From a virus: a stretch of DNA of 64,000 bases. A program made the position numbers and the translations under genes. Numbering within the stretch: the first letter of the stretch is position 1; every line of letters begins with the position of its first letter. Location of the stretch: positions 6,154 through 70,153 of IMG/VR virus record IMGVR_UViG_3300023174_000155; one strand, written 5' to 3'. The notes beneath the pieces are model-generated. The model searched no databases. It had not been told where the DNA came from and saw only the letters and a list, made by a program, of their open reading frames with translations. Below are positions 7,101-60,635 of this stretch, in pieces.

Positions 7101-7383
7101 GGATGATGTGGTTGTAAGCCTGAATTGACTTATCTGTTTTAGATGAACGATCAAATCTATCAGTTGGGGAGATGTAAGCCTCAACTCCAAGAATTGGCTT
7201 GATGCCCAATTCTTTTGCTGCTATTTGCATTTCACGATGTGAAGATAATGTGCCGTGATCTGTGATTGCAATTGCAGTTTGCCCAGCATCTTTTGCAGCA
7301 CGAACAAGTTCGAGAGGAGAGTTAAGTCCATCCATAAGGCTATAATAACTATGGCAATGAAGGTGAGTAAAATTATTTTGCAT
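4108..7383 (-). CDS. dnaE: DNA polymerase III alpha subunit
   Basis: PHP domain (HLHCHS..S.MDG, ITDHG), GRGSAAGS, PDIDTD catalytic motif, HAAGVV, YSFNRSH, OB folds. Confidence 0.97.
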   Translation of the reverse strand: MQNNFTHLHCHSYYSLMDGLNSPLELVRAAKDAGQTAIAITDHGTLSSHREMQIAAKELGIKPILGVEAYISPTDRFDRSSKTDKSIQAYNHIILLAKNKKGLENINILQELAWNEGFYHKPRIDREVLKEYAEGIIVLSGCLNGLISKSIEKGEFSEAKLILKDFSKTFCDDFYIEVQSHNPHEINSKLLELADELKIKAVATGDAHFAKEEDRILEEALLILSTSPKADKEMDFDMSRNMKNMLDRFNYLYPDRRISFQNYNLFIQSREEIEADFKKALINRTDIFDNTMEIANKVEDYDFYQGLDLLPVPKTDADERLRELAVKGLESLGKASDDIYMARMEEELSVIASKNFASYFLVVGDMINWAKGTGIRVGPGRGSAAGSLVCYALGITDVDPIKYDLLFFRFINPERNDFPDIDTDFEDRRRKEVKEYLKKKFKHVASISTYTYFKDKGVVRDASRVFMVPLQEVNRALKPVDTFEDFMESPNTKEFRLRYPEVVWLAERLRGRIRSVGVHAAGVVVAKDDLRKYAPVESREDAQDKVSGRIPVVAYDMDTVADIGLIKLDALGLKTLSVISDTLESIKKRHKKEINLSSLTMDDPKVYQMLSEGYTKGVFQAEATPYTNLLMKMGVDKFEDLVASNALVRPGAMNTVGAAYINRKHGREAVDYSHKIMKQFTENTYGVIIYQEQVMQACVHLGGMSWSEADKVRKIIGKKKDAKEFDQFKDQFIAGASKQISQKKAEQLWHDFEAHAGYSFNRSHAVAYSMLSYYTAWLKSYYPLEFMFSILKNENDKDARTEYLIEAKRLGLRIMLPHINESDIYFSLQDDGIRFGLAEVKFISDSIANKIMDKRPFIDYADFIDKASKKGSGINSRAIAALNSIGGAAFEDNPRTGDEKDNYYEYLGIPTFNLAGIPPRIKAQARPIDDFDDLGSFVMFGMVKSIKRGNGWARVELVDETGTIGLFHHEDTQIEPNQMYFILVGDNRIARYVNVKEIDPNAADLFVDYLYRKEYDLEEDEYIVVNFTNYKTKAGKMMSHIVLSNAQKELTRAIVFPTLYKMSLAKMREGMKCKVVLAKLDDGTLNVKEIK

Positions 7384-17983: not shown

Positions 17984-19714
17984 CTATAAAGTTCGGCAAG
18001 TGATAGAGGTCTCCAATCCTGCATTATATCTATGCGTAACTCTAGTTACAATTAATTTTTCTGTTCCAGCAAAACCCTGATACAAATATTTTATAGTGAT
18101 TAAATCTCCTACTGATATAAAAGGATTTCCAAACACATCCATAGATACCACCTTGCCTCTATTTACAACAGTATTTTTAATCCAGTCCGCTAATGACTCA
18201 ACATCAGTTAAATTTTGAAGCCACATTGATTGAAATTGAATTGGTTCTTTAGATGTATAATCAGATACTTCTTCTGTTGTATATTCTAGATCTCCAGACA
18301 TTCCTAGCGTATTTCCAAAAATATAAAAGTATGAACTTTCATTATCTGATAAGGGGATTGTTGTAGAGGTATTATTTAATAGGTATGCTTCTGCTGAAAA
18401 ATTAGATATTTTTGATGCCAATATTTTAGCGTATGGGTTTCCGCCAGTTGTCCACTTTACTGGGAATGTTGGTCTACTGTCAAACTTAACTTTAGCCGTT
18501 GTAATTTCTCTAACAACCGTTCCAAATTCATCAACCATAGTTTTCTTTTTATCATACTCATCGCCTTCAAGTGAGGCGTTGTATAGAGTTTCTCCAAATG
18601 CTACATCTACGACATCATTAGAAAATTGTCCTTCGTAAAAATTAATTTTATAAGCAGCATCATTATATCTTGCTGTATCTATATCTGTTCCATAAACATA
18701 ATCAAATGCTGCTGTTCCTCTTGTAGCCATTAGAGCAACACGTTTTGTTGGATGAATAATTTCATCTAATCCCGTACCAGTAGTGCTATCTGTTGCCATT
18801 ATTTTAAAACCATTAACATATGCAATTATTTCTACATTTAAATTCTTTACTTTAACCTTAACATCAATTGAATATGAGGTTGCTCCATATACTCCGCCAA
18901 ATGTGCTAGTTGTGCTTTTTTGAGAATCTGCTAAAACTTTTATTTTTGTGCCATTAGTTTTAATTATTCTAATTGATTTTCTATCCTGTGAAGCAGATAA
19001 GCTGGTTGATTCTACTACAACAAAATAGCCAGAGGTTGCTTCCTGATTAACAAAAAATCCTAGACCTGCACCTGGAGTTGAGTCTTTAATTGATTCCATA
19101 AATACAGTTGTTCCAAAAGAAAAATAAGACTCTGCATTATTTTTCATGGCTTGATCTACAGAATAAGTTCCAGTCAAAAATGTTTTTGTTTGTGTTGGAA
19201 GAGTAATTGCTTCAAATTCTCTACTTGATACGGCAAACTGATCTTTTACTTTTGTATTATTTGTTATTGTTAAGTATGACTTGCCCTGACCAATATTTTT
19301 AGGGTCCAGTGTTGTTCCTATAACCTTACCATTAAATGTGCTAGATGCCAATTCAATTTGTGTAGATAAAAGATTGCCATAAGTTGTATTTCTTTTTGCT
19401 TGAACTGTAAACAAATACCTTCTTTCAGCAGTTAGTCCACCCAATGTAAATAACAATTCGTCTGAACTGTTTGCAATTGCTTGTGTGGATATTATTGGTG
19501 CACCGTCATTTGATCCATTATCTAGCAATTTTTGTGCAGTTATTTCAACGCTTGTTGGCTGAACGCTTGTTTCAAGTTTTGAAAATGATATTTCTACTTC
19601 TGTAGAGCCCGTTTGATTTACAACTAGACTTGATATTAGTAAAGACGTTGATGAGCCAACAGGTAAACTTGAGGTTTCTTTATATTGATAATCTACATCA
19701 TATGCGCCTGGCAT
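17984..19714 (-). CDS. minor tail protein (FN3 + lectin-like + tail-tip C-terminus)
   Basis: LTAERRYLFTVQA FN3 motif; C-terminal FGNP.I.VGD.I.I.Y motif of tail-tip proteins. Confidence 0.7.
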   Translation of the reverse strand: MPGAYDVDYQYKETSSLPVGSSTSLLISSLVVNQTGSTEVEISFSKLETSVQPTSVEITAQKLLDNGSNDGAPIISTQAIANSSDELLFTLGGLTAERRYLFTVQAKRNTTYGNLLSTQIELASSTFNGKVIGTTLDPKNIGQGKSYLTITNNTKVKDQFAVSSREFEAITLPTQTKTFLTGTYSVDQAMKNNAESYFSFGTTVFMESIKDSTPGAGLGFFVNQEATSGYFVVVESTSLSASQDRKSIRIIKTNGTKIKVLADSQKSTTSTFGGVYGATSYSIDVKVKVKNLNVEIIAYVNGFKIMATDSTTGTGLDEIIHPTKRVALMATRGTAAFDYVYGTDIDTARYNDAAYKINFYEGQFSNDVVDVAFGETLYNASLEGDEYDKKKTMVDEFGTVVREITTAKVKFDSRPTFPVKWTTGGNPYAKILASKISNFSAEAYLLNNTSTTIPLSDNESSYFYIFGNTLGMSGDLEYTTEEVSDYTSKEPIQFQSMWLQNLTDVESLADWIKNTVVNRGKVVSMDVFGNPFISVGDLITIKYLYQGFAGTEKLIVTRVTHRYNAGLETSITCRTL

Positions 19715-21750
19715 TATTTCTTACCTCCAGTTGTCCATGTTATAGTTCTTCCTGTCCATTGACTTAAAGCGTCTGTTGCAGTTGCGCTATGAAATGCTGC
19801 AGTTGTTCCAAGCGCTGCTCTTGATTTTACACGAACTCTATTAGTTGGCTTAAAGTATGCGCTTTCTGGTCTTGTAGGATCTTGAAATCCTGGTTTTGAT
19901 AAATATCTATATTTACTTACATCTGATTGTGATTCTATCCATACAGGAATCCATGTGGGGGTTGAGCTTGAATCATTTTTATCAACATACTGATATTGCA
20001 ATGCGTCAAATTCAAATATTTCTGAATCAATTAATAGGTAGCCATTAAAATTAAATATAGATTGATATTGGCTATAGTTGTCAATTGTTTTTGTTTCAAT
20101 TTGAAGTCCTGGATATGTGGTTGCATTAGTTAGATTATTTAAATCTGCAACACTGGTTGCAGCTTGAATTGGATACTTAAGTCCACCCGCCGAAAGAAAT
20201 GTTGTTGGTGATTCCCAAAGTGGTCCAGAGCTTTGAACATAATTAGATTTGAGAGGGGTTTTCCAAATAATCTTTACTTGGTTTCCAGAGGCAATTTCAT
20301 CTTGACTAAAAGAAATTATATTTGGCAATGCTGATCCTTCTGCTTCGCTATAGAATGACCATGTAGAAGATCTTGTTGAGTCATAAATGTAATCTCTGCT
20401 ATAAAATTGCAAGATACCTTCATCATCAAAGAATGCATTCATTTGAATGTCTCTGCACAATATTTGTATTGCTTCCCAAACTGTTTGATTGTCTTCTGTC
20501 CACCAATAGTTTACAATTGGTACGGACGTATCTGGTGACTTTAAGTTAAAATTGTAATCAACAAAACCAATTGAATCTAGCAGCCTTCTTATAATTGCTG
20601 TTACTGGGAAGTCTTCACATAATATATCTGGGCAAAGCGTTTCCATTAAATACTTTGCTCCATCTAAAGCAACTACCCTAACGTCTCCATATTCTGAAAT
20701 AGACCAGTTGTCAACATAATAAATGCCTTGCTCAACTTTATCGTATTTATCAGATCCAGAAGTTATTGCTCCATTTGAATGAAATACTTTAATGTATGGC
20801 TTTAGTTCTGCATATTTAAACATATATATCTTGTCTGTATCAAATGATGCAGACAGTCTATTATATGGAAGTGTCTGTAGGGTTGTTTGGTTATATTTAG
20901 ATAGATTTAAATCTATGTTGTTTGCTGTAACTGTTCCAACTGGCAATATGTCTGATGGATTAGATGAAGATTCTTTAGTAATGTCTAATGAAACTATGTC
21001 TGAAGATATGTCCTTTATCCATCTAGCTGATACTTCAATAATAGCTATTACTTTTCCGTTTCCTGGATTTGTTGCTTGAACACGAATTGATTTAATAGCT
21101 TGTGGTGTTGCATATGTAATTGGCTCTGTTGGTGCCGTCGCTGACCAAGATGAGCCGCCGTAGTAAAGGGTTACCAGACCGCTTGCTGGTGTGCTTGTAG
21201 GGCCAAGCACCTGTGTTGAGTTATCAGACTTTGTAATAGTAATTGTATACGTTGTTGGAAGTTGATTGTATTTATCAAATTTGACTATAATTTTATTTGC
21301 TACAGCATTTTTGTTTCCAGTTACTGGGTTGGAGGCCTGCTTATATGTTACTGTTAAATCTGCGGCGGCATTCTTGGGAGCTACCCAATATTTATAAGTT
21401 GTGCTAATTCCAGGATAATAAACTCTAGGCTGTGTGTTTGGATACTGCAATGTTCTAAAAGCAGAAAATGTTGTTGTGTCGCTTGGAAGGGCAATAAAAT
21501 ATTTAATGCCTGGTCCTGAAGGTCTAAATGGCTTTATTACAGAATCAACTGGGAAAAGCTTTTTAAATGGATTTACTTTAATTGGTGTTGTTGATAAATA
21601 ATTTATACCACCAATATAATCTTCCTTTGTTGCAGTTGTACTTGCAGTAATACCATCAATCATAGAATTCATATTATATTCAATGGTACATCCTACATCA
21701 GTTCTTACTGTTGTATTATTGTAAAATACATTTTCAAGATTTGTAGGCAA
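19714..21750 (-). CDS. minor tail protein (hub/Tal-like)
   Basis: G.YYVD.W, WE.IQ.LC......FFD..G.L.F motifs; follows distal tail gene; TTG start. Confidence 0.7.
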   Translation of the reverse strand: MPTNLENVFYNNTTVRTDVGCTIEYNMNSMIDGITASTTATKEDYIGGINYLSTTPIKVNPFKKLFPVDSVIKPFRPSGPGIKYFIALPSDTTTFSAFRTLQYPNTQPRVYYPGISTTYKYWVAPKNAAADLTVTYKQASNPVTGNKNAVANKIIVKFDKYNQLPTTYTITITKSDNSTQVLGPTSTPASGLVTLYYGGSSWSATAPTEPITYATPQAIKSIRVQATNPGNGKVIAIIEVSARWIKDISSDIVSLDITKESSSNPSDILPVGTVTANNIDLNLSKYNQTTLQTLPYNRLSASFDTDKIYMFKYAELKPYIKVFHSNGAITSGSDKYDKVEQGIYYVDNWSISEYGDVRVVALDGAKYLMETLCPDILCEDFPVTAIIRRLLDSIGFVDYNFNLKSPDTSVPIVNYWWTEDNQTVWEAIQILCRDIQMNAFFDDEGILQFYSRDYIYDSTRSSTWSFYSEAEGSALPNIISFSQDEIASGNQVKIIWKTPLKSNYVQSSGPLWESPTTFLSAGGLKYPIQAATSVADLNNLTNATTYPGLQIETKTIDNYSQYQSIFNFNGYLLIDSEIFEFDALQYQYVDKNDSSSTPTWIPVWIESQSDVSKYRYLSKPGFQDPTRPESAYFKPTNRVRVKSRAALGTTAAFHSATATDALSQWTGRTITWTTGGKK

Positions 21751-21752
21751 GA

Positions 21753-22226
21753 TTAGACCTCTTCCATTGAAAGAGATATATTCCAGTGTGCTTGAACTCC
21801 ACGCTTGACTAGATCAAATGAGCAATCTGTAAATGAAACTGTAAAGGTTTCATATCCAGAAGATACCTGGCTTGATCCATTTTTTGCATAATTGATGCGT
21901 ATGTCAAACGTGCCTTGTCCAAGAGTGCTGTTATAAAATGTTCTTAGATCCTCAGCTCCCCAATATCCATCAACTGTTGCTGTTCTATATGATGGTACTA
22001 GATCCCATGAAACATTAAACGCTTCTTTATCTGCAACAAAAAACTTGCGTAAAGTTCCATTTGCCATTCTTCTTGATTGTTCAATTCTATTATGATTTAT
22101 TGTAAATTGACCACGATTATGATCTGTTACTGTATTCCATTTTGTAGTTCCATCCCCGCCATTTGCGGTTGCATCTACTCCGTATATTTGAAGGAGTGCA
22201 CCTTTAGGTAATGTCATTGCTGCCAT
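21753..22226 (-). CDS. distal tail protein (Dit-like)
   Basis: directly after the tape measure gene; RMANGTLR, W..VP, SL..EEV. Confidence 0.7.
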   Translation of the reverse strand: MAAMTLPKGALLQIYGVDATANGGDGTTKWNTVTDHNRGQFTINHNRIEQSRRMANGTLRKFFVADKEAFNVSWDLVPSYRTATVDGYWGAEDLRTFYNSTLGQGTFDIRINYAKNGSSQVSSGYETFTVSFTDCSFDLVKRGVQAHWNISLSMEEV

Positions 22227-25200
22227 TAGTAGTTTCTCCCCCTTCCAATTGTTGCTTCACGCAATTTCATCTTTCTTTCAATTGCATTTGCTACATCATC
22301 TGCAGACAAATCTGTTCCATTAAGTGTAACGTTAATATTATACAGGGAGTTTGAAGAAGTTGCCATACCCCCATTATTATATTTAACTCTTCCTCCCATT
22401 GAATATGCTGGAACATTATAAACTGGGCCACCCATAGCCATTTTATTAATTCTATCAAGCATAGGCATTCCTACTGACTTTACAGATTTAGCATTTATTA
22501 CATATTCACCATTTGAAAGCATTGCAGGAATTGAATCAGATGTTCCATTTCCTGCTCCACTTATGTATCCGCCCATAGCCTTTTTAAATACTGCTCTTAA
22601 TTTAATTCCAGCTGGTGTGGTGATATCATACTTCTTTCCCATATTATCATAAATATAGGTTATTCCGCCAATCTTTTCTACTGTTCCGCCTGGCTTGCCC
22701 ATAACATCAACTGATCCTTGATATCTAGACTGACCAGTTGTTTTTCCAGTTGTTGTAACCTTTGAATTAGTATTTCCAGTAAACACATTTACTGCATCAA
22801 CAAAAGTTTCAACCGCCTTTGAGAACTTGTCATTTGATTCAGCTCTACCTAAAGTTGATGCGCTTAAGTTTTCAAACATAGACTGATACTTATCTTTAGT
22901 TACTGTTACGCTTCCAGTTCCTGGAGATCCCTCGTATGTCTTTGTTCCAGTAATATACTGTTTTTCCATTTGTGTTGCAGCCTGTGCAAGGCCAGTATCT
23001 TTGCTAGATTTAGCAGCATTAAATGATGCCGCTAATGCCTTTTGTGCATCTGGAGTAAACTTGCCACCATATTTAGCAACAATTCTAATAATTTCTGCTT
23101 CAAAATCTTTTGCTGACTGTGTGTCTTCTACAGCTCTTGCTGCTCCAGCCGCTGCGCCTGATGCAGCCTTTGACTTAGCATCTTTTTGATTTTGAAGTCT
23201 TTCTATTTCATCTTCTAGTTTTTTTCTTTCAGCATCAAATTTATCATTAATTGATTTTCTTGCTAGCTCTCTTTCCCTGTCTGATCTAATCTTTTGAATA
23301 TTAAGTTGTTCTTGAGCAGCCTGTGCCATATCTCCAGAAGCAAGTGCTTCCTGATATTTAATCTGTGCCTGTTTTATAGATGTTTCAAAACTTTGTGAGC
23401 GTTCTTGAAGATCAAGTATCTCTAATCTTTTTTTTCTTTCTTCTTCTAAAGCATCAATAAGTTTTTGATTTTTCTTTATAGCATTATCATAATAAGAGCT
23501 ATCTTGTTTTGCTGAGGCTTTTACAATATCCTGTAGTCTACCTTGATTTTTAACTCTTGTGGCAACTAATTTACCTATTGCAGTTTCTGATACAACTGAA
23601 GTGGCCGCATCTTTTACCTTTTGATATCCAGCAGCAACTGATATAGCTTCAGCACCAGTCATTGCGCCAATATCCATAACATCACTTAAACCAGCTGCAA
23701 CTAATTGATACTTAGAAAATATGCTTAATATAGATTCTGACTTGCCTAAAATAGAAGCCATTTCAAGATTTTGCATTTTATAAGCTTCTAAGTTTTGATC
23801 ATTAATCTTTGCTGTAGCTCCTGTAGATCCCTTAATTTTTTCAATTGTTTCTGCTAAAGCTTCTGTTTCTGTTTTAACTTTTCCATTTTTGTCTTTAATA
23901 GTAGTAAGAGAATCTTTATATGAATTTAGTCCATTAAGTACAACATCCATTCCAACATTAAACTCTTCTGCATTAAATGTTTTAGCCCCTTCAATAACTT
24001 TTCCAAGTTTTTCAACTTGGCTTGTTGCGGCACTTGCCCTATCTGTGATTTCTTTAAAGCCAGATGATGTTATTGCTCCAAGCGATTGCTTTGCTTTATT
24101 TGAAGCGGCAACAAGTGTATAGATTGTATTTGTAGCTTCTTCTACGCTCATGCCCATAGCTACATATTGTGCCTTCATTGATGTGGCTAATTCATTAACT
24201 TGTGATGTATCTGCATTATTAAATAGGTCTACAGTTTCTTTTGCACTAGTCTTAGCTTTTTCAATTCCATCTTTTAATTGTTGAATTGTAAGTGTAAGTC
24301 CAGGTATACCGCTTTTTGTAAATGAATTATATGAAGACTCAATTTTAGCTTTATTTAACTCAAGCTGGGTATTCATATCCTTAATTCTGTCGGATATAGA
24401 TGTATATTGAATTCCTACTTCTGCAAGCTGCTCTTTTGTCCCGCCAAACATTGCACGGTTAACTTTACCAGCATTTTCAGCATCTTTTCTAAATTTATTA
24501 ATAAGCATTACTGCTGCTGTAAGTCCACCAATTACTGCACCAGGAATTGTTAATCTACCTAGAATGCTTGCTACTTTAGCTACAGAAGGTATTAGGCTAC
24601 CAAATCCTTTCATGGCTGTCATCATTGGAATAATGTTTGATGCAACTGATATTGCCATACCAGTAGGTCCACCAACCATCTGTCCTGCAATTCCACCAGC
24701 TAAACCAATTCCCATTTGTGCACCAATTCCCATTGGTCTTCCAGACATGTTAGAAACAATTCCTTTGCCATAAGGATTTTTTAATCCTGCGGTAAATGCT
24801 CCAACTGCTCCGCCATCTTGGTATCCTGGAATTATTCCTCCTGCATTTCTAGGAACAAATAGCTCTGGACCATTTTCTCCAACAAGGTAAGGTCTTCCAG
24901 CATTTACTGGACCACCCATTGCACGAGCACCATCTACAACTGTTTCTAATTGCAGTCTTCCATTTTCTGCATTAACAATTCTAAACTTTCCGCCAAATAT
25001 AGATTCTTTTTCTGATCTTGAATTGTTTGTTAGCTTTTGTCCAAATGGTGCCGCAAATTTTGCTTGTGGGAAAATTTCTGAAGCTGGCACAACATTTCTA
25101 TTTTTTACTAAAGCTTCTAATAAAATTGATTTACCTTCAGTGTCTGCTCTAAATCCTGGAGCAAACATTGAGGCAACGCCTCTGTCTGAACTCCATGAAG

Positions 25201-28200
25201 AGCGACGCATAATAAATTCTTTTCCAATTAAACCTGAATAATCTCCAGTTGCTCTTGCTTGTGTAAGAGCATCTAAAATATTTTGTGGCAGTGGGTTTGA
25301 TCTATTATTACTTAAACGAACTCCTCTATAAAGATTTCCGCTAAATTTCTTTGACAAAGACTTCACAGCTTCTGTAGCACCTGGAGTATTTAATATTCCA
25401 TAGTTGCCTTCCATGTATTGGCGAAGTATATATTTACCACGATCTTCTAATGTTCCAACTGGGAATCCTGGAACCTGTGCCATACGTGCAAACTGTGGAT
25501 CGTTATAACTAATTTCTCTAGTTCTTGCAAATGGATCTTTTTCAAATGGATCATACTGTGCCTTTGATCCAACATGCATTGCTCTACCAATTTGTAATGG
25601 ACCATGTAGTGGGTCTTGGTTTCCTAATGTATATTGCATTCCTTGTGGATAGAATTGCTTCTTTGGTTTCCATTTAGAAGTTAGTCTACTAATTACTGAT
25701 GAAGATAATGATGGAATTCCGCCTCCACGAATATATCCTTGAACCATTCCGCCCATATTGTACTTTCCATTTTGTGCTGGAACTGGAATACTTCTTCCGC
25801 CTTGAGATGTAACCGCTCCGCCCATCATTGGTACCATTCCACCAGCATTCATTCCAACCCAGTTGTTTGTTGAAGCTTTAAAATTAGATGTAATTGATTC
25901 TTCTGATGAATCAAATACTATTTTTGCAAAATCTTGTTCGTTTATTGTTCCACGCTTAGATAGTATCTTATAGTTTATTTTGTTTGCAGTTGCCGATAAT
26001 ATATTTTTTACTACTGATGTGGGCAACCCTAATTCATGTTGTAAATGCATTGCAAGGTCGGTTAGGTTTCCTGGTCCAACTTTTACCCAGTCTGCAGATG
26101 TTGCAGTTTGATCGTTTAATTTTTCATTAAAATGTTGTGATCCTCTAACGGACATTGCTGGAAGCGCTCTATATTTTTTATTTGGATCTATTTTGCCTGT
26201 TGCCCCTAAAGCAATTAAATCAGACCCAAGTAAGTCTGGTGTAGATGCTGTTCCAGTTGGCATTCCATGTGTGTTTAAAAATTCTTGGCTCACTGCATGA
26301 ATATTTACTTCTGACTGTCTTTTATCAATTTTGCCGTCTGCGCCACGAACTCTCTTTAATGGCCTTGCCCCATATAATCTAGAAACTTCTCTGCCAGCCT
26401 TAGATTTAAAAAACCTAGATGAAGAAAAATCAGAATACCCATATCCACCTGGTCTTGCTCCAGGTGTTGAAAATGCATTGAACCCGCTTGTTCTTTGATG
26501 ACCCCTGCTGCTCATTGTGACGCCTCTAGAGGCACCTACTGCAATCATTTTATTTCTTAGGCTTGCAATAACTCCGCCAAGGTTTTTATTTTGTACTGGG
26601 ACAATCATTGCCTGACCGTCATTGAGAGCTCTCATTCCATCAGGATCTTGTTGTGCAATACCCTTTTTAATTACAAACTCTCCTGGAGTAAGCATTGCTG
26701 GAACTGTATCTGTGTTTCCAAATCCTGGAACTTGATCTCCATTATTGAAAAATACATTTCCACCCATTTTAAATCTTTTTGGTCTAGTTGTTTCTATTGA
26801 GTATGGTGCACCAAAAGTTTTAACTCCTAGGGCTCCCGCAATTTTATTAATAAGACCTCTATTTCTTGGTCTTGTAAGCTCTTTCATGTTAGCTTTTCCA
26901 GTTACTGGATCAAATGCTGGTTGATCTACAATTGGAAGTTGAGTTAAATTAATTGTTCTTCCTTGTGCGGTAGCAATACCTGTTGCGGCTTGGCCCATCA
27001 TTGCTTCAATCTGTTGATTTAATGAAATAATCCTTGCTCTTGCTTGATCAACATTTATTTTAGATGCTTGAAGTTCTGCAACTATTTGTGCTGACTCTGC
27101 TGCCGCCAATGAAGTTATTCTTGACATTTCTGGAAGTAGTGCTTGATATGAATCAGATAATGAAGTTGTAATTAAACCAGTTGCTGCAATTTCTTTTTTA
27201 AGCAATGCTATTTCTTGTTGTGATTGCATTGCTAATGCACCAGTCATTGAATGGAATTTAGCAGCTTCTTCTGCAACAATTCCTGTTGAAACTCCACGTA
27301 TTGCACTTGCTCCTGCAACCTTTGGTAAATCTCCAGACATATACATCTGCGGATTATTGCTAATCTTTTGATTAACTAACGGTGCTCCTGGAACAACACC
27401 AAATATTGTTTGTGCAGATTTTTCTTCTGCTGTCATTCTGCTTAATGGATTTAAATGAGAGAAAGATCTAGTGTCTCTTTCGCTTATTAAAGGATGATTT
27501 GGAACAACTTCTCTTCCGCCTCCAACTACAGTATTTCCAGCAACTGTGGAAATTACTGGTCTTGCTGATATTGTTCCAGAACTTGCTTTTCTACTTAATT
27601 CATCTAATTCTAAATTTAAATTAGCTAGCGCTTGTCCTAAAATATTTGCTGCTTTAGCATCACTATAGAATGTTGTTTCCATAAGATTTCCAGCTTTTTG
27701 AGCTGCTAAAATTTCAGGAGTTAATAATTTCCATCCTTCTCCGCCTTTAAATAATGCCTTAAAATGTGCAATTCCCTTAACAATGTATCCAAAGAAGTTT
27801 GCAAGTACACCAGTTAACATAATTGCAGGACCTGCTAATGCTGTTAAGCCTCCAACTAATGTCAAAATCTTTTTAATTGGGTCTGGAAGCTTATTGTTAA
27901 ATTCAATTACTTTGTCAATTAAGTTAATAAAGAATGTTTGAATATTAAGAAACGCATCTCCAACTCCTGCAAGATCTGCTTTTAATCCTTCTAATGCTCT
28001 ACGATATTTACCAGAAGCCGATTCTGTGATTTGTGATAATTCTCGTCCAGCTACATTTGCTAAATCTGATGCACTAGAATTCATTAAATCTAAAACTTGT
28101 AGCGTCTGGCTTCCCTGTTTTCCTAAGTTATCAAATAAAGCTGACAATCTAGCAAACTGGAACTTTCCAAATAGCTGTTCAATTGCTTTTGATTTAGTTA

Positions 28201-29479
28201 ATGGATCAAGTGTGTCTAGCGCTTTTTGTAATTCTAAAATTGTTCCTGTTAAATTTCCAGCATTGCTTGTTACAATTCCACCTAAATCTATTCCAAATCC
28301 TGCGAACATTTCCTTTGCAACTTTAGTTGGGTTAATGAGAGATGCTAAAGATGACTTAATTGCATTTGCACCTTCTGATGCATTGATTCCGCCTTCCTTC
28401 ATAGCCGTTAAATAAAGAGCTAGGTCTTGTATGCTTCCGCCCAAAGACTTTACAACTGGTCCAGCTTTTGGAATTGCTTCAACTAAATCTGCAAGGCTTG
28501 TTGAGGTTTGGTTTTCAACTGCGTTCAGGAAGTTAATCGACTCAGAAAGCTCTTGTGTATTTTGATTAAATGCTGTTTGAATTGCAAGCGTCGCCTTCAT
28601 TGCTTCTTGACGATCAACTTCTCCAAGTACCGCTAATCTTGTTGTTTCTCTAGTTGAGTTAAGAAGGTCTTCTCCTTGCTTTCCAGTTGCCGCAATATCA
28701 GCAGCTAAAGCTATAGTTTCTGTATAAGATGCACCGTATTGTTGTGCTAAATCTTTTGCTGTTGCTGCAACTTCTTTTCTAATTTTTCCTAGCTCTACAG
28801 CAGAAGTTTGTGCGACACCACCATAAACTTTAGTAAGTCTAACTAGTTGTTCGTCTGCAACTCTAAATGCATCTGCTGCTGCTTTGCCGAATGCTGCGAT
28901 TGGAATAGTAAGTCCAACAGTTAACTGACGTCCTGCCCACTGAGTATTCTTACCCCAGTTAATTAATTGCACTCCACCATCTTGAATTACTTTGTTCATT
29001 ATTTGCATTTCTTGCTTAAGCAATGCAGCCTTATTCTTTGTTACGTCCAGTCCTCTTGGAACCTGTACGTTAAATTGCATTAACCCTTCAGCATTTCTGC
29101 CTAATGGTTGAAGAATAGAATTTTGTAATTGAACTTGTTGTTTTGCTAAATCTCTAATTAAGCCGCCTGCAGTTTTTGAATGATTTTGCCATGTGGCATA
29201 ATAGTCTCTTAATTTAAGTTTTCCAGAATCTAAATTTTTTCCAAACTTGTCAACATCTGAAGATAGGCTTACAAAATGTGTAGAAAATTGTCCTGTGCTT
29301 CTTAATGTTGCAGCAAAATTCTGTTGAATTTTGGCTGCTTGTAATGCAAGTGCCTTGTCAGTTGTTGTAAGAGTTTGTTTTAATTGGGCAAGATTAGTAG
29401 TGACCTTATTGACATTTGCAATTAGATCTGAAAAGTCAGCATTAGCGACTATATTCGTGACTATGTTTTCATCAGCCAT
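22226..29479 (-). CDS. tape measure protein with internal cargo domains including an ADP-ribosyltransferase
   Basis: 2417 aa after tail chaperones; helical TMP domain, hydrophobic segments, DTVPAML.PGEFV, LVGE.GPELFVP and DSIPAMLSNGEYV motifs; LYRG/SSWSS/ExE at aa about 1383-1492. Confidence 0.92.
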   Translation of the reverse strand: MADENIVTNIVANADFSDLIANVNKVTTNLAQLKQTLTTTDKALALQAAKIQQNFAATLRSTGQFSTHFVSLSSDVDKFGKNLDSGKLKLRDYYATWQNHSKTAGGLIRDLAKQQVQLQNSILQPLGRNAEGLMQFNVQVPRGLDVTKNKAALLKQEMQIMNKVIQDGGVQLINWGKNTQWAGRQLTVGLTIPIAAFGKAAADAFRVADEQLVRLTKVYGGVAQTSAVELGKIRKEVAATAKDLAQQYGASYTETIALAADIAATGKQGEDLLNSTRETTRLAVLGEVDRQEAMKATLAIQTAFNQNTQELSESINFLNAVENQTSTSLADLVEAIPKAGPVVKSLGGSIQDLALYLTAMKEGGINASEGANAIKSSLASLINPTKVAKEMFAGFGIDLGGIVTSNAGNLTGTILELQKALDTLDPLTKSKAIEQLFGKFQFARLSALFDNLGKQGSQTLQVLDLMNSSASDLANVAGRELSQITESASGKYRRALEGLKADLAGVGDAFLNIQTFFINLIDKVIEFNNKLPDPIKKILTLVGGLTALAGPAIMLTGVLANFFGYIVKGIAHFKALFKGGEGWKLLTPEILAAQKAGNLMETTFYSDAKAANILGQALANLNLELDELSRKASSGTISARPVISTVAGNTVVGGGREVVPNHPLISERDTRSFSHLNPLSRMTAEEKSAQTIFGVVPGAPLVNQKISNNPQMYMSGDLPKVAGASAIRGVSTGIVAEEAAKFHSMTGALAMQSQQEIALLKKEIAATGLITTSLSDSYQALLPEMSRITSLAAAESAQIVAELQASKINVDQARARIISLNQQIEAMMGQAATGIATAQGRTINLTQLPIVDQPAFDPVTGKANMKELTRPRNRGLINKIAGALGVKTFGAPYSIETTRPKRFKMGGNVFFNNGDQVPGFGNTDTVPAMLTPGEFVIKKGIAQQDPDGMRALNDGQAMIVPVQNKNLGGVIASLRNKMIAVGASRGVTMSSRGHQRTSGFNAFSTPGARPGGYGYSDFSSSRFFKSKAGREVSRLYGARPLKRVRGADGKIDKRQSEVNIHAVSQEFLNTHGMPTGTASTPDLLGSDLIALGATGKIDPNKKYRALPAMSVRGSQHFNEKLNDQTATSADWVKVGPGNLTDLAMHLQHELGLPTSVVKNILSATANKINYKILSKRGTINEQDFAKIVFDSSEESITSNFKASTNNWVGMNAGGMVPMMGGAVTSQGGRSIPVPAQNGKYNMGGMVQGYIRGGGIPSLSSSVISRLTSKWKPKKQFYPQGMQYTLGNQDPLHGPLQIGRAMHVGSKAQYDPFEKDPFARTREISYNDPQFARMAQVPGFPVGTLEDRGKYILRQYMEGNYGILNTPGATEAVKSLSKKFSGNLYRGVRLSNNRSNPLPQNILDALTQARATGDYSGLIGKEFIMRRSSWSSDRGVASMFAPGFRADTEGKSILLEALVKNRNVVPASEIFPQAKFAAPFGQKLTNNSRSEKESIFGGKFRIVNAENGRLQLETVVDGARAMGGPVNAGRPYLVGENGPELFVPRNAGGIIPGYQDGGAVGAFTAGLKNPYGKGIVSNMSGRPMGIGAQMGIGLAGGIAGQMVGGPTGMAISVASNIIPMMTAMKGFGSLIPSVAKVASILGRLTIPGAVIGGLTAAVMLINKFRKDAENAGKVNRAMFGGTKEQLAEVGIQYTSISDRIKDMNTQLELNKAKIESSYNSFTKSGIPGLTLTIQQLKDGIEKAKTSAKETVDLFNNADTSQVNELATSMKAQYVAMGMSVEEATNTIYTLVAASNKAKQSLGAITSSGFKEITDRASAATSQVEKLGKVIEGAKTFNAEEFNVGMDVVLNGLNSYKDSLTTIKDKNGKVKTETEALAETIEKIKGSTGATAKINDQNLEAYKMQNLEMASILGKSESILSIFSKYQLVAAGLSDVMDIGAMTGAEAISVAAGYQKVKDAATSVVSETAIGKLVATRVKNQGRLQDIVKASAKQDSSYYDNAIKKNQKLIDALEEERKKRLEILDLQERSQSFETSIKQAQIKYQEALASGDMAQAAQEQLNIQKIRSDRERELARKSINDKFDAERKKLEDEIERLQNQKDAKSKAASGAAAGAARAVEDTQSAKDFEAEIIRIVAKYGGKFTPDAQKALAASFNAAKSSKDTGLAQAATQMEKQYITGTKTYEGSPGTGSVTVTKDKYQSMFENLSASTLGRAESNDKFSKAVETFVDAVNVFTGNTNSKVTTTGKTTGQSRYQGSVDVMGKPGGTVEKIGGITYIYDNMGKKYDITTPAGIKLRAVFKKAMGGYISGAGNGTSDSIPAMLSNGEYVINAKSVKSVGMPMLDRINKMAMGGPVYNVPAYSMGGRVKYNNGGMATSSNSLYNINVTLNGTDLSADDVANAIERKMKLREATIGRGRNY

Positions 29480-29488
29480 TTATATATG

Positions 29489-29860
29489 CTACCCCTTTTC
29501 GTATCCTAATCCCGCTCCAATTCCAAATCCTGCACTTGCTGCTAGTTGTCCTTGTAATGAAACTATGTCATCACCACTAGCATTTATACCAAGTGCCCGT
29601 CTTTGTACATCTTCAAAGGAAGGACCTTCTTCTTCTTGGCTATCTTTTCCTAAGTCTATACCTTGGATTGACGCTAAGAATCTTCTTTTCTCTGACTCAG
29701 TCTTTTGCATTGATTTCAAAGTTTGAATCAGTTCTGGCATTGAAAGACTGTCTTCTAGTTCTTCGTAATTCTTCCAGTGTCCTAAAAGAAAAACTTCACC
29801 CTCTAATGCGGCTAAATCTAGTTCTGACCAGCCAGAACCGCTGCCGCTAGAAGGTTTGGG
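29489..29860 (-). CDS. tail assembly chaperone, frameshifted C-terminal part (gpGT-like)
   Basis: -1 frame open from slippery site: KPSSGSGSGWSELDLAALEGEVFLLGHWKNYEELEDSLSMPEL... Confidence 0.85.
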   Translation of the reverse strand, partial: PKPSSGSGSGWSELDLAALEGEVFLLGHWKNYEELEDSLSMPELIQTLKSMQKTESEKRRFLASIQGIDLGKDSQEEEGPSFEDVQRRALGINASGDDIVSLQGQLAASAGFGIGAGLGYEKG

Positions 29861-30150
29861 TCGTCCATCTTAATCCCACCGCATACTTCAAGGATGCGAT
29901 TGATTGTGGGTACGTCTAGTGCATCTTCTAATGCATCTCTATCTGCTACCAATTCTGGTAACTGCTTTTCTAGTGCAACTGCACATGCGTCAATAAGGAT
30001 ATCTAATGTTTCATCTTCTGACTTTGTATCTGCGGTCTTGCTAATCGCAGTCATAAATTTTCTTAACTCTTTAATTGTAAGAGGCTTTAATTTTACCTTA
30101 GCCCCATTTTGTAATTCAATTTCTTCTACGTCGTAGATTTTAGTAGCCAA
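29818..30150 (-). CDS. tail assembly chaperone (gpG-like)
   Basis: between major tail and TMP; AGGAGG RBS, TTG start. Confidence 0.85.
   Translation of the reverse strand: MATKIYDVEEIELQNGAKVKLKPLTIKELRKFMTAISKTADTKSEDETLDILIDACAVALEKQLPELVADRDALEDALDVPTINRILEVCGGIKMDDPNLLAAAVLAGQN
29854..29860 (-). other. programmed -1 frameshift heptamer C CCA AAC
   Basis: X XXY YYZ in correct phase; -1 frame joins the 29489-29740 ORF. Confidence 0.85.
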
Positions 30151-34897: not shown

Positions 34898-35947
34898 TTA
34901 GCTAGCGACTTTTACATTTTTTACTACCACCCAAGCATCAGCTTGTTCGATCTGGACGCCAACACGAGTATACATTGTGTACTCAATTGAGTCCTTGCGT
35001 GGCCAGAAGAAACGGTAAACAGTTACATCACGCTTAATTCCAACAACAACGTTGTTAGGGAATGTCAAGTGGATATCACCGTGTGAGCCTGATGTTCCTG
35101 AATAGTCACCAGTCTGTGTTTCTGGAAGAAGTGGAACTTCAACAATTGGAATACCAAATGCGTAAGGTGCTACGTAACCTGCTGGTCCTGAGACTGGCTG
35201 TACATCACCACGGATGATGCTTGAAGCAATATCCTGTGGAATTGTCTGGTTAGTACCAATGCTGTTTGCATATAGGAAATCTTGGATCAAGTTTGATCCA
35301 ACTAAGAAACGAAGATCAGCACGACGCTGCTTGTACTTACGTGGCAAAGCCTTTAGTGCAGAGTTAAATGATGCACGAGTAACCGCTGCTCCACCGTTAT
35401 CTACAACACGTCCATATGTCTTAGCCTTCTTAACTACACCGTTAAATGCCTTATATAGTGCATCTCCTGTAAGAGATGTATCACCATTTAGAAGAACATC
35501 TTCAATGTCATTTCCTGCTTGTGTTGCCATCATTCTGGCAATATGATCTTCTAGATCTGGACCTTCAATGTTGTCTTCTAGAGACTCTGTTGAAAGTTCC
35601 CAATCCAAACGAAGCTTCTTTGTTGTCAAAGAAATCTTTGAGAAAGAGACTGCTGAGTTGCCACCAGTTGTATCAGCTTCGGTTGCTAGAACCATAAGCT
35701 TTTCTCCTACTGACATGCGATCAATTTCTGTTGTATCTGCTTTCATTCTTACTGTACGGGCGACTTTACCAATTACGGTTGCGTCGAACATATAGTCAAG
35801 GAAGCGAGCCGACTGCTCTGGGTTAAGGAGTCCACCTTCACCCTCAGAGCCGATGTGTACTCCGCTAGTAGCTACTGCGGAACCTGTCATGTTAGCTGTA
35901 ACGTGTGTGTTAGATGCTACTGACTTTTCTAATAATTCATTGCTCAT
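34898..35947 (-). CDS. major capsid protein (HK97 fold)
   Basis: GGLLNPEQ..RF, L...K.RL.WE.S.E.LEDNIEG, D.E...LNGD; follows protease/scaffold. Confidence 0.92.
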   Translation of the reverse strand: MSNELLEKSVASNTHVTANMTGSAVATSGVHIGSEGEGGLLNPEQSARFLDYMFDATVIGKVARTVRMKADTTEIDRMSVGEKLMVLATEADTTGGNSAVSFSKISLTTKKLRLDWELSTESLEDNIEGPDLEDHIARMMATQAGNDIEDVLLNGDTSLTGDALYKAFNGVVKKAKTYGRVVDNGGAAVTRASFNSALKALPRKYKQRRADLRFLVGSNLIQDFLYANSIGTNQTIPQDIASSIIRGDVQPVSGPAGYVAPYAFGIPIVEVPLLPETQTGDYSGTSGSHGDIHLTFPNNVVVGIKRDVTVYRFFWPRKDSIEYTMYTRVGVQIEQADAWVVVKNVKVAS

Positions 35948-37331: not shown

Positions 37332-38915
37332 TTATTCAACCTGTCTGCCGTCGCCTTGAGCATTTCTTCCTTCACCTGAAATATCTGGTGAATTACCCTG
37401 TCTCTGTTGATCTCTGACACGGGTATTATTTGCCTGTGCTCTAATTTCAGCCTGCTGTTGTGGCTTTAATTGAACCATATCATCTCCTCCGTCCAAAGGA
37501 ATCATACCCTTTCTAATTCGGACTTCATTTGGAGTAATTACCTGCATTCTTAAATATCTTTCATCAATCTTAGATTGAGTATCCTCATCTGTAAGAGTCA
37601 ATTCATTGAATTTAAGTGAAAGAGCATCTGTCTTTTCTTCAATAATTTTATTAATCTTCTTTTCTAATGTCATTTGTGCTGGACGACAAACCTGCTCTTT
37701 AAATGTCTTATCAGCATCTCTTGCTACAGCTAAATTTACACCTTCTGGTGTTCCAATTTTATTAATTGGGACACGGTGAGCCAAAAGAATTTCATCTCTA
37801 TTTGCCTTGCGATAAAGATTAAATGAAGATTCTTGTGTACCAGCTTCAATTGGCTCCATCTTAAATTCAACCTTTTGGTCTGGGCTATCTGCTGGAAGCG
37901 GGATATATAGGGATCTGTGATTTTTTCCTCTTAAGCCTACCTGGAAAAATTCAAGCAATTTTCTTTCTGATTCTGGGGATAGCTTTGCTCCCTTTACTGT
38001 AATAATATATCTTGGGACAGCCTTATTTTCAAAGTAGTCTAGGTTATATTTACCAGCAAATTCATTTCCAGCCAACGCATTTTGTGCTGCAATAATATCT
38101 GGGATTCCATAATAATTATTTTGAGGAGTGTATTTCTTTAGGTGAATAACTTCGTTCGGTCTATCTTCTCCGCCTGCAATTGGGTTCTCTGTTTCAGTAT
38201 CTCCAAAGTTGCGGAAATAGACAGCCTTTCCATAAAGCAACTGAATAAATCCGTCACGCAAGCGACGGACACGCATTGTCTTTGAAGGTATATGCCCAAT
38301 GTATCCTATGTTACCTGAAGTTGTTCTGCTGATCTCAAGGTAGCCATTACCAGTTGCCTCTAAGTCTGTATATACTTTAATTAGTGTTTGTGTAAAAGTA
38401 TCTTCATCATTTGTTGAATCAAGCCATAGCTGAAGATCCTGCTTTAATTTATTAAGTTTTCTACGGGCTCTTTCTAGCTGCTTGTCATCTGTAATAGAAT
38501 CAAATGCATCATTTGTTTTTCTTGTTTCAGTAAAATCATATCCAAGTCCAACAATATTTGCTACCTTAGCATTAATTGCTGCATAATTGTAAGTTGAGAT
38601 TTCATAAATTCTTGAAAGGTATTCTTGATTATATGGTGGTTCGACAAGGTCGAACATTGCATATCCAGTAACCGCCTGCTGCAATAAATTCTGTTGTGTT
38701 CCAGTTCCTTCTGTACCTGAAAATGCCTTAGATAACTCTCTGCCCATCTTACGACGGAATGTAGAACTTAATCCAGATACCTTTCTTAATTCATCTTCTT
38801 GAATCGAAAAAGGATCTGAGTAATCTTTTTCTTTCTTTAATTGAAATAGATCAGATGCAGAAGAAATTTGAATTCTATCTGTTGACTCCGAATCGTTATC
38901 TTGAATAAACTCCAT
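37332..38915 (-). CDS. portal protein
   Basis: EPPY, D.E.TGN.YLE, NEVIH.K, YYG.P, F.N.A.P, I..AHRVP, TPNEVR. Confidence 0.93.
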   Translation of the reverse strand: MEFIQDNDSESTDRIQISSASDLFQLKKEKDYSDPFSIQEDELRKVSGLSSTFRRKMGRELSKAFSGTEGTGTQQNLLQQAVTGYAMFDLVEPPYNQEYLSRIYEISTYNYAAINAKVANIVGLGYDFTETRKTNDAFDSITDDKQLERARRKLNKLKQDLQLWLDSTNDEDTFTQTLIKVYTDLEATGNGYLEISRTTSGNIGYIGHIPSKTMRVRRLRDGFIQLLYGKAVYFRNFGDTETENPIAGGEDRPNEVIHLKKYTPQNNYYGIPDIIAAQNALAGNEFAGKYNLDYFENKAVPRYIITVKGAKLSPESERKLLEFFQVGLRGKNHRSLYIPLPADSPDQKVEFKMEPIEAGTQESSFNLYRKANRDEILLAHRVPINKIGTPEGVNLAVARDADKTFKEQVCRPAQMTLEKKINKIIEEKTDALSLKFNELTLTDEDTQSKIDERYLRMQVITPNEVRIRKGMIPLDGGDDMVQLKPQQQAEIRAQANNTRVRDQQRQGNSPDISGEGRNAQGDGRQVE

Positions 38916-46089: not shown

Positions 46090-46422
46090 TTAATCTGCTA
46101 TTTCCCAATTACATGTATCTTCATTAAGGGTCCAGGAAACTTCTTTTGTACTGCCCTCATTTTCTGGATCTGGAATTGTAGTGGGAGGCATAGGTGGTAT
46201 AAAAGCATCTCTTGCTGAGTCATAAGTATACCCAATGTTTGCATAGTTTTTTCTAAAATTATTATTATAGGAGGTTTGTACCCATATTCCTCCAAGATGT
46301 TCAAGGTGTTTTAATCCAAGAGATTCTTGTTCAATATTATTTTCATCAAAAAGTACCTCATTAGCAACTGATGTTACTCTTAAAACAACATTATTATCAT
46401 TAAGTTCTGCGAAATGTGCCAT
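46090..46422 (-). CDS. fibre chaperone-like protein (MAHFA type)
   Basis: MAHFAEL...W.QTSYN..FRKNYA.IG..YD...DAFI.P; TAATG-coupled to Gly-rich gene. Confidence 0.7.
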   Translation of the reverse strand: MAHFAELNDNNVVLRVTSVANEVLFDENNIEQESLGLKHLEHLGGIWVQTSYNNNFRKNYANIGYTYDSARDAFIPPMPPTTIPDPENEGSTKEVSWTLNEDTCNWEIAD

Positions 46423-60634: not shown

Positions 60635-60635
60635 T

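Follow-up and report, generated by a model that had tools for sequence, protein, structure and literature searches.

The tape measure protein (TMP) gene in the window, i.e. the whole 64,000-nucleotide stretch of viral DNA analysed here, is read by us, with moderate confidence, as carrying an in-frame cassette for a divergent ADP-ribosyltransferase (ART) of the R-S-E type, with its catalytic residues intact, that would be delivered by the virion to modify a host protein. Virion-delivered phage ARTs and enzyme domains inside TMPs are both already known, and the TMP ART is a variation on these.

The tape measure gene and its setting

The gene is a single uninterrupted frame of 2417 aa (22226..29479; all coordinates below refer to the minus strand). 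Its identification as a TMP in an earlier, sequence-only reading is upheld by a match to PF10145 (PhageMin_Tail, E 2.9e-29), located by Pfam at aa 240-438 (28166..28762), by matches to PHROG TMP families (12 of 17 matched families bear this label, the best being phrog_10030, E 5.2e-123) and by the gene order, which runs portal, protease, major head protein, head-tail adaptor, Ig-domain protein, two small ORFs, TMP and minor tail protein. TMPs determine tail length and are ejected on infection. The Ig-domain protein upstream of the TMP is probably the tail tube, and the two small ORFs (83 and 110 aa; 29489..30150), which match the function-less families phrog_10474 and phrog_10504, would from their position be tail assembly chaperones. 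Downstream (19714..22226) lie a 157-aa ORF and a 678-aa minor tail protein (phrog_10359, E 6e-60). A scan of 10 ORFs between 19714 and 35947 yielded no match to a sheath family. The TMP N-terminus has 246 relatives in cultured phages, every one of them from a phage that infects Actinobacteria, in keeping with the actinophage background suggested previously; the phage is a long-tailed siphovirus, probably with an actinobacterial host. The 70-kb record, of approximately 65% completeness (CheckV), contains no WhiB gene.

Two hydrophobic stretches had been proposed within the TMP, and Kyte-Doolittle analysis places them at aa 537-571 (27767..27871; window 19, maximum 1.82) and aa 1636-1663 (nt 24574-24491). 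The first falls within the conserved N-terminal 980 aa of the protein; the second closes a segment (aa 1580-1663, 24491..24742) that is Gly/Met-rich from about aa 1580 and then hydrophobic, and that is also found in L070, L073 and L097. A Gly-rich junction motif (MGG...VPAMLTPGEFVI; aa 903-937, 26669..26773), common to sister TMPs and overlapped by a phrog_35029 match at aa 912-953, has counterparts that resemble it at aa 1519-1545 and aa 2301-2330. Between the first and second of these lies a middle module (aa 980-1239, 25763..26542) that is without a Pfam match and shares 28-31% identity with the ART-less TMPs L097 and L078. The downstream junction motif (AMGGPVNAGRPYLVGENGPELFVP; aa 1519-1545, 24845..24925), with phrog_30701 and phrog_1538 matches at aa 1515-1557, is 77% identical to that of L080, a TMP with a kinase cassette.

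Predicted fold and catalytic residues

An R-S-E type ART within the TMP was the central proposal of the sequence-only reading, and structure prediction agrees with it. The AF2 model of the region (pLDDT 79.8, pTM 0.74) contains a predicted ART catalytic fold at aa 1342-1516 (model residues 53-227; 24932..25456) that was matched to ARTs by Foldseek, VIA-align and BFVD. An ART fold comprises a split beta-sheet core and an N-terminal helical part. The Foldseek PDB matches listed are R-S-E ARTs throughout, with the exception of lymphostatin at rank 46, and include Vis (E 2.1e-5), Certhrax, Tre1, C3, HopU1, CDTa and ExoS, at TM-scores that are low (0.32-0.41) and rmsd values of 6-10 Å. In a second look with VIA-align the 50 rows listed were all ARTs (Z 7.7-9.1, 130-147 residues aligned, rmsd 2.8-4.9 Å), and in an independent VIA-align search of 48,161 PDB chains ranks 1-26 were occupied by chains that we take, from entry titles, to be ART-fold or ART-like, the first unrelated chain scoring Z 3.4. 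The best chain in that search gave Z 9.3 over 136 residues (rmsd 3.1), and the best rows overall aligned 136-148 residues at rmsd 3.1-3.7; VIA-align likeness is at the level of the fold, which alone shows no function. BFVD returned 51 matches at E <= 1e-3, of which those with names are phage ARTs, ModA and ModB included, or proteins of the virion with head-morphogenesis, portal or minor-capsid labels, about one-third of 50 rows being nameless.

The three motifs described from the sequence are present in order on the 2417-aa ORF, as LYRG (aa 1383-1386, nt 25333-25322), SSWSS (aa 1427-1431, nt 25201-25187) and SEKES (aa 1489-1493, nt 25015-25001), and in the AF2 model they are in register on the canonical ART secondary-structure elements. 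Arg1385 (codon 25325..25327), in a [Y/F/H]-R-G motif, lies on the first core strand (model strand 88-99); Ser1428-Trp-Ser1430 (25190..25198), an S-x-S/T motif, ends model strand 132-141 and is followed by helix 144-148; and Glu1490-Lys-Glu1492 (25004..25012), the ExE pair, begins the long model strand 203-216 after a 20-residue loop.

Conservation was assessed over 46 cluster representatives, in 44 of which the domain is present. Among the representatives covering each position, Arg1385 and Gly1386 are kept in 42/42, Ser1428 in 43/43 and both Glu1490 and Glu1492 in 44/44, position 1430 is Ser or Thr, and the representatives with invariant catalytic residues include some whose overall identity to the window is as low as 29%. 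Across 34 aligned relatives at 42-96% identity, R, G, S-S-W-S and E-x-E are all invariant. Since these residues are invariant among relatives, the motifs occur beyond chance. The serine motif as originally drawn needs amendment: Ser1428 stands, Ser1427 varies (S/A/R), and the conserved form is S1428-[W/F]-[S/T]1430. The loop before the ExE pair carries an invariant aromatic (F/Y, Phe1475 in the window); an ExE pair together with such a loop aromatic are features of protein-arginine-specific ARTs. The ART core is under purifying selection, with dN/dS of 0.13-0.23 (5 pairs) versus 0.085-0.18 for the TMP N-terminus.

Sequence searches place the domain at a distance from filed families. Pfam and PHROG returned nothing on the window's ART domain, PF03496 (ADPrib_exo_Tox) stayed below its gathering score in the relatives too (best E 0.083, in 2/34 relatives; DRAT reached E 0.1 in 1/34), a six-frame search of the whole record found no PF03496 match, and PDB sequence and profile searches with the domain gave nothing relevant. 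As no PF03496 match was obtained by score, we regard the domain as representing a divergent family with this fold that is not yet filed. T4 Alt, ModA and ModB are phage R-S-E type ARTs, as is predicted for the TMP domain; although ModA and ModB are among the BFVD fold matches, their sequence kinship to it is marginal. The hhalign probability was weak for ModB (29.8%), the alignment pairing LYRG with LYRG, S-W-S with S-F-T and E-K-E with E-Q-E, and was 0.15% for ModA and 18.5% for an 8-sequence Mod profile; Arg1385 was paired with the invariant Arg of Mod alignment A3 (A3 position 73). In the ESM Atlas a Mod_ADP_RT (PF26816) cluster scores 0.89, which serves as a lead only. Relatives of the domain were not found in 50,697 cultured phage records (tblastn) or in GTDB genomes.

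The cassette and its variable slot

The ART cassette spans approximately 280 aa (aa 1240-1519, 24923..25762), its blastp boundaries running from window aa 1240-1251 to 1519. It is a unit common to the window and to the other ART-bearing TMPs L068, L069, L113 and L075, which have a different middle upstream of it, and close TMP pairs are found with the middle swapped. At all 13 of 13 loci the domain is embedded in an ORF of 1763-3220 aa, and the ORF is at least 2000 aa long in 31 of the 44 domain-bearing representatives; almost all relatives of the domain lie within giant TMPs. Presence and absence could be decided for 50 of the closest 80 TMPs, and the ART is present in 9 and absent from 41. 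In some sister TMPs its slot is occupied by a protein-kinase-like, ATP-type domain; across IMG/VR the slot holds an ART in about 50 loci and the kinase-like domain in about 45. Conserved junction motifs bracket the slot, and the cassette ends some 60 aa before the Gly/Met-rich then hydrophobic segment. The TMP framework is conserved apart from one variable slot, and it is this slot that the ART cassette occupies. More tentatively, the TMP centre may be a cargo bay, a slot bracketed by Gly-rich junctions upstream of a membrane-active segment, into which enzymes acting in the cytoplasm are swapped.

Proposed delivery and alternative roles

In the mechanism that we propose, the ART domain would be packaged into virions within the TMP, would exit the tail along with it at infection and would get into the host cytoplasm, to which NAD+ is confined. 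There it would ADP-ribosylate a host protein ahead of phage gene expression, for the purpose of takeover or counter-defence; the ExE rule predicts arginine as its target residue. The predicted ART needs NAD+ and the kinase-like domain in the slot of the sisters would need ATP, which supports cytoplasmic cofactor use and argues that the TMP middle sees the cytoplasm. The two hydrophobic stretches, one on either side of the ART, might give a topology that opens it to the cytoplasm, as the sequence-only reading suggested. As a counterpoint to tail delivery, folded 20-kDa domains would have to fit the tail-tube lumen.

T4 Alt is packaged in the virion, and the TMP ART may work like it, from the tail instead of the head: Alt is a separate protein in the head, whereas the TMP ART is an in-frame part of a tail protein. 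According to PMC7824862, Alt acts on the RNA polymerase of the host as infection begins. In actinobacteriophages, MuF-VIP2 ART fusions such as gp4 of Microbacterium phage Percival are predicted virion components (PMC7302621); these likewise join an ART to an actinophage virion protein, but are head-internal (MuF/portal) and recognised as VIP2 by Pfam/CDD, whilst the TMP ART is in the tail and not recognised by Pfam. ART fusions to head-morphogenesis, portal and minor-capsid proteins also figure in the BFVD matches.

It is also conceivable, if fairly unlikely, that the ART modifies host or phage proteins, or the TMP and its chaperones, inside the producing cell while the tail tube is still open, and that it ends up in the virion incidentally. 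By gene order the TMP is a late structural protein, which would be translated in NAD+-rich cytoplasm. Serratia Tre1 (6dre/6drh) and the Listeria ART-ARH pair (8za7), to which the TMP ART is a fold match (Z 8.4-9.3 over 130-136 residues), are effectors delivered into a bacterial cell by a phage-tail-like or secretion machine, a delivery that for the TMP ART we infer, and they are paired with an immunity protein, whereas no macro or ARH antidote-like gene was found across the record here; that absence would be tolerable in a cell near lysis. Against a late role, however, a free enzyme would be simpler, and no internal start is apparent: within aa 1180-1345 none of the nine in-frame starts has a Shine-Dalgarno-like site, versus 10 of 20 gene starts in the window. 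A junction-bracketed slot near a hydrophobic segment, moreover, looks like delivery architecture, and known virion-linked phage ARTs are read as injected effectors (T4 Alt; MuF-VIP2, PMC7302621).

That the domain is an NAD+ binder or NADase, or modifies a substrate other than protein, for instance a small guanidino compound or the end of a nucleic acid, in place of a host protein arginine, we consider decidedly unlikely. NAD glycohydrolase side activity is found in many R-S-E enzymes, which counts for an NADase, as does the silence of the fold on function, and Vis, among the closest structural matches, was crystallised with agmatine (4xzk). Modification of protein arginine would nevertheless be favoured by the complete ExE pair and by the invariant aromatic at Phe1475 in the loop before it. 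Very improbable is a pseudoenzyme or structural spacer, with the ART fold retained for tail length or assembly. In its favour may be counted the 41 of 50 decidable sister TMPs without an ART, from which the ART is dispensable for tail building; R, S and ExE, however, would be superfluous in a spacer, and the invariance of the catalytic residues in 42-44 representatives, together with the dN/dS values of the core, speaks against it. Least probable of all is that the domain serves as a Trojan horse, toxic to eukaryotic grazers. PMC6802176 proposes this role for the VIP2-like ARTs encoded by 24 freshwater phages, and the sequence-only reading raised it for this locus, which lends it no support. 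Whilst actin-modifying toxins are among the structural matches, bacteria-targeting effectors match equally well (Tre1, Z 8.4-8.7), and the ART is locked within a structural tail protein without a binding or translocation (B) component or a secretion signal.

Under the favoured reading of virion delivery, the domain bears on a long-standing siphovirus question, namely the fate of the TMP after ejection, in periplasm, membrane or cytoplasm. Were the cargo bay true, the ART would be direct genetic evidence of a siphovirus TMP middle entering the host cytoplasm, and the tape measure would be an effector-delivery device comparable to the specialised VgrG/PAAR/Rhs effectors of type VI secretion. Host proteins that became ADP-ribosylated within minutes of adsorption, while phage genes are silent, would give a readout of TMP translocation, and the tail would form a second virion route for host-modifying enzymes beside the head. 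The putative TMP ART family would be overlooked by Pfam-based surveys of phage 'toxins'.

Polyvalent proteins (PMC5512222) offer a possible parallel in that several effector domains are delivered with DNA on one polypeptide; they also have a processing metallopeptidase, whereas in the TMP of the window the domains recognised include a single enzyme and, by Pfam, no peptidase. The main text of PMC5512222 contains 0 occurrences of 'tape measure', 'tape-measure' or 'TMP'. To our knowledge, the enzyme domains described in TMPs all act on the cell wall. Peptidoglycan hydrolases (Rpf-like, M23, CHAP) are embedded in TMPs such as those of mycobacteriophage TM4 and T5 (pb2). Like the ART, they are globular enzyme domains in frame within the TMP; unlike it, they act on the cell wall, cofactor-free and outside the cytoplasm, whereas the ART needs NAD+. 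In one sister ART-bearing TMP (L068), CHAP and LysM domains are present alongside the ART.

The ADP-ribosyltransferase domain and its predicted fold

The putative ADP-ribosyltransferase (ART) domain is carried by a single ORF of 2417 residues on the minus strand (22226..29479) that is, as judged by its sequence, a tape measure protein (TMP): residues 240-438 match PhageMin_Tail (Pfam, E 2.9e-29), and 12 PHROG TMP families match the ORF, the best with E 5.2e-123. The sequence-only reading had placed the three motifs of R-S-E mono-ADP-ribosyltransferases within this protein, between two hydrophobic stretches; the placements were borne out, with LYRG at residues 1383-1386, the Ser motif SSWSS at 1427-1431 and the ExE motif SEKES at 1489-1493, and both hydrophobic stretches proved real.

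Scanning the ART region (232/236 residues) against Pfam and PHROG gave no matches, and phmmer and two profile searches of PDB sequences with this region returned chance rows only. When 34 relatives were scanned singly, PF03496 scored no better than E 0.083, in two, and DRAT no better than E 0.1, in one; PF03496 found nothing across the entire 70-kb record, and the sole Pfam match among seven remote or short cluster representatives was PhageMin_Tail in P0046. Alignment to T4 ModB by hhalign was weak (probability 29.8%, E 5.6e-4), pairing LYRG with LYRG, S-W-S with S-F-T and E-K-E with E-Q-E, and the alignments to ModA and to the Mod profile were weaker than this. Among the neighbour clusters in the ESM Atlas, taken as leads only, were one at a score of 0.91 with PF03496 in 20% of its members and one at 0.89 with Mod_ADP_RT. 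The window ART is a divergent family outside the capture of Pfam, and this family forms part of the present finding.

Comparison of a predicted structure with known ARTs, which the sequence-only reading had proposed as a check, clearly returned an ART fold. The AlphaFold2 model, built from an alignment (A2) of 34 sequences comprising the window and IMG/VR translations, has a pLDDT of 79.8 and a pTM of 0.74, with low confidence in residues 1-52 and the final eight. Foldseek against the PDB listed R-S-E ARTs in every row except rank 46 (lymphostatin), the top match being Vis (E 2.1e-5), at low TM-scores (0.32-0.41). A second look with VIA-align gave ARTs in all 50 of the 50 rows listed (Z 7.7-9.1), with 130-147 residues aligned within model residues 53-227 at an rmsd of 2.8-4.9 Å. 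In a separate VIA-align run against 48,161 representative chains, ranks 1-26 were ART-fold or ART-like by their entry titles, led by a Listeria ART-ARH effector (Z 9.3, 136 residues aligned, rmsd 3.1), and the first unrelated chain appeared at Z 3.4; such a gap in Z between ART rows and the first unrelated chain is the criterion set by the notes of VIA-align itself. At E ≤ 1e-3, BFVD contributed 51 matches; those that carry a name are either ARTs of phages (Gordonia GMA2, ModA/ModB) or proteins in which an ART is fused to a head-morphogenesis, portal or minor-capsid protein, and none of the top 50 was named as a tape measure. R1385 lies on the first core strand of the model, S1428-x-S1430 closes a strand that is followed by a helix, and the ExE motif starts a long strand preceded by a loop, such that the motif residues are predicted to occupy canonical ART elements.

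A phmmer search of 1.84 billion representatives with the 236-residue region (E ≤ 1e-3) matched 46 proteins, 44 of which contain the domain by profile HMM scoring; two representatives, P0043 and P0047, have a short-repeat match only and no domain. Most of the domain-bearing representatives are long (at least 2000 residues in 31/44), and the five of fewer than 1000 residues may be fragments. The remotest with a recognised TMP domain, P0046, is 29% identical and has its ART at residues 767-993. When each position is scored in the sequences that reach it, R1385 and G1386 are invariant (42/42), as are S1428 (43/43) and both E1490 and E1492 (44/44); S1427 is variable, and W or F occurs at 1429 and S or T at 1430. 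In five pairs the ART core gave dN/dS values of 0.13-0.23 (Nei-Gojobori script), compared with 0.085-0.18 for the first 950 residues of the same proteins. A rival reading would make the domain a pseudoenzyme; the sequences and the model together point to an ART fold that lies in frame within the TMP, is under selection and keeps its catalytic residues, and its activity is predicted.

A variable slot in related tape measure proteins

Relatives of the TMP N-terminus are encoded on at least 590 IMG/VR stretches, of which the best 80 were classified. Presence or absence of the domain across related TMPs, also suggested earlier as a check, was scored: among these best 80 of at least 590, the ART is present in nine and absent from 41 ORFs of at least 1700 residues, and 30 are of insufficient length to decide. 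ART-bearing and ART-less TMPs have residues 1 to ~980 and ~1520 to the end in common and differ in their middles. The closest contrast is provided by two loci, L008 with the ART and L133 without it, whose TMPs are 92% identical over residues 1-973 and 69% identical over the C-terminal 946 residues, with no similarity detectable between their middles (580 and 390 residues, respectively). In ART-bearing TMPs with other upstream middles, similarity to the window starts at residues 1240-1251 and stops at residue 1519, and these limits define an ART module of ~280 residues, which is flanked by the Gly-rich motifs ...YNMGGMVQGY... and ...AMGGPVNAGRPYLVGENGPELFVP and followed ~60 residues downstream by a Gly/Met-rich hydrophobic segment.

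A FastTree phylogeny built from the N-terminal 950 residues (81 rows) requires at least eight changes of ART state, in a sample that is biased because L001-L063 were picked as ART carriers; the count stays at eight without L060, L061 and L086, short ORFs of doubtful state. These changes suggest that the cassette is patchily distributed among close relatives, eight not being a count of events.

Several further features of this region were observed. The Gly-rich motif occurs in three copies (26669-26773, 24845-24925 and about 22490-22579, minus strand), of the form MGG...[PA]ML..GE[FY]VI or GGPV...GENGPELFVP. These copies are spaced along the TMP and enclose the variable slot, and they might serve as joints for recombination, as hinges or as sites of processing. 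The ART module has at its N-terminal edge the peptide PLHGPLQIG (residues 1290-1298; 25586-25612, minus strand), which is almost invariant in the 34 relatives (its P, H, G, L, I and G do not vary), lies where model confidence is low, and is a candidate site for cleavage or docking. Residues 980-1239 (25763-26542, minus strand) form a module of ~260 residues with no Pfam match that also occurs, at 28-31% identity, in the ART-less TMPs of loci L097 and L078.

A different putative enzyme occupies the slot in L080, an ART-less sister locus whose TMP N-terminus is 75% identical to that of the window. Its insert of 468 residues (TMP residues 1233-1700; L080:4430-5833, plus strand) corresponds in position to window nt 24923-25762 and is conserved in 45 IMG/VR loci. 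With a model of this insert (pLDDT 67.6), VIA-align against the whole PDB gave kinases or kinase-like proteins in nearly all of the 50 rows listed, headed by CotH (Z 10.9), CtkA (10.1) and MavQ (9.8) and followed by PI4K, Fam20C and HipA, the match spanning model residues 12-279; Foldseek was weak (best E 5.9e-3, to CtkA). Pfam gave nothing relevant on 19 members of the cassette, and a PDB profile search with it gave nothing. The invariant residues of the 19-sequence alignment, G-x-G-G-x-Y, V-K-P, a Glu 11 residues on, D-K-D-L-x-x-x-N and D-V-G, are what we take to be the kinase Gly-loop, Lys, Glu, catalytic loop and DFG-like motifs. Structural alignment and conserved motifs thus point to a putative kinase-like domain, the core of which is present in two of the best 80 of at least 590 TMPs. 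The final ~150 residues of the insert are a separate module, also found in 12 other ART-less TMPs. A further locus, L068, encodes an ART-bearing sister TMP of 3819 residues in which CHAP (E 4.5e-6) and LysM (E 2.6e-12) domains lie downstream, within the C-terminal 2298 residues (L068:14564-21457, plus strand); since ART, CHAP and LysM are joined here in one TMP, some members are multi-enzyme tape measures.

Possible delivery, rival readings and precedents

TMPs occupy the tail lumen and exit at infection, arginine is the usual target of ExE-type R-S-E enzymes, and NAD+ is cytoplasmic. Beyond an ART fold in a swappable slot of the TMP, which the comparisons establish, we infer delivery and modification of the host: the cassette would be ejected along with the TMP, refold, enter the host cytoplasm near the membrane-active segment and modify a host protein ahead of phage gene expression, a tail-borne role equivalent to that played by T4 Alt from the head. 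The kinase-like cassette would need ATP, which points in the same direction, towards the cytoplasm, as an NAD+-using ART.

Action of the ART in the producing cell is a rival to such delivery, and several searches bear on a separately made or free-standing form. A Shine-Dalgarno-like site precedes none of nine internal in-frame starts, a weak negative that gives no sign, at the sequence level, of an internal ribosome-binding site for a free ART. Among 5.8 billion proteins of 113-426 residues, a profile search returned four short proteins only, namely P0012, already in the phmmer set, and three of 121-268 residues that span roughly half of the query and may be pieces; neither this search nor phmmer on representatives gave a clear case of a free-standing family. 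Searching 50,697 records of cultured phages by tblastn gave no relative of the cassette, and none of 55 pattern matches to profile A2 in GTDB (one genome per species) was confirmed. As to antidote genes, neither a Macro nor an ADP-ribosylglycohydrolase gene was found in the record, which is ~65% complete. The domain might otherwise be an NADase or use non-protein substrates, or serve as a toxin against grazers; modification of a host protein by the ejected cassette is the reading preferred here.

T4 Alt is a known virion-carried phage ART, and enzyme motifs within TMPs are already known; the window ART differs from Alt in residing in the tail (TMP) rather than the head. MuF-VIP2 fusions in actinophages are described as virion-carried ARTs (PMC7302621), and ART genes are reported from freshwater phages (PMC6802176). 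The available parts of PMC7302621, PMC7824862, PMC7354433, PMC12014285, PMC10684548 and PMC4524720 contain no description of an ART inside a TMP, full-text searches of the literature found none, and the main text of a survey of polyvalent proteins (PMC5512222) makes no mention of tape measures. Table S3 of PMC6802176, a list of ART-encoding phages, may bear on whether ARTs embedded in TMPs have been counted before. Virion ARTs and TMP enzymes are thus known, and their combination, of which we found no description, may have been annotated before.

Gene neighbourhood and likely host

The source record, to which the 64-kb window belongs, comprises 70,153 bases (~65% complete by CheckV), and the window has a GC content of 34-44% with nearly all long ORFs on the minus strand. 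From the head end, the gene run consists of a portal (37332-38915), a prohead protease, the major head protein (34898-35947), a head-tail adaptor and a probable tail tube protein with an Ig domain; two small ORFs then precede the TMP, after which come a 157-residue ORF and the gene for a minor tail protein (19714-21750). No sheath family was matched among the 10 ORFs scanned in this tail-gene region, and the neighbourhood fits a siphovirus.

Among cultured phages, 246 records match the first 600 residues of the TMP, with identities of 33-35%, and the hosts of all 246 are Actinobacteria (Streptomyces 127, Gordonia 104, Rhodococcus 8, Tsukamurella 6 and Nocardia 1). An actinobacterial host is put no higher than likely because these N-terminal relatives are all actinophages but neither a WhiB gene nor a tRNA was found in the ~65% complete record.

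Elsewhere in the window, on the minus strand, a 990-residue ORF (60939-63911) contains nine stretches of collagen triple-helix repeats (E 1.5e-69) and two ORFs (46422-48422 and 51225-52991) contain fibronectin type III and glycine-rich domains, all three being probably fibre or decoration proteins. A Mtd_N domain (major tropism determinant N-terminal; E 1.3e-9) opens a 900-residue ORF (57950-60652, minus strand), and a complete DnaE-type DNA polymerase III alpha subunit with PHP, NTPase, finger and HhH domains is encoded at 4108-7383 (minus strand).
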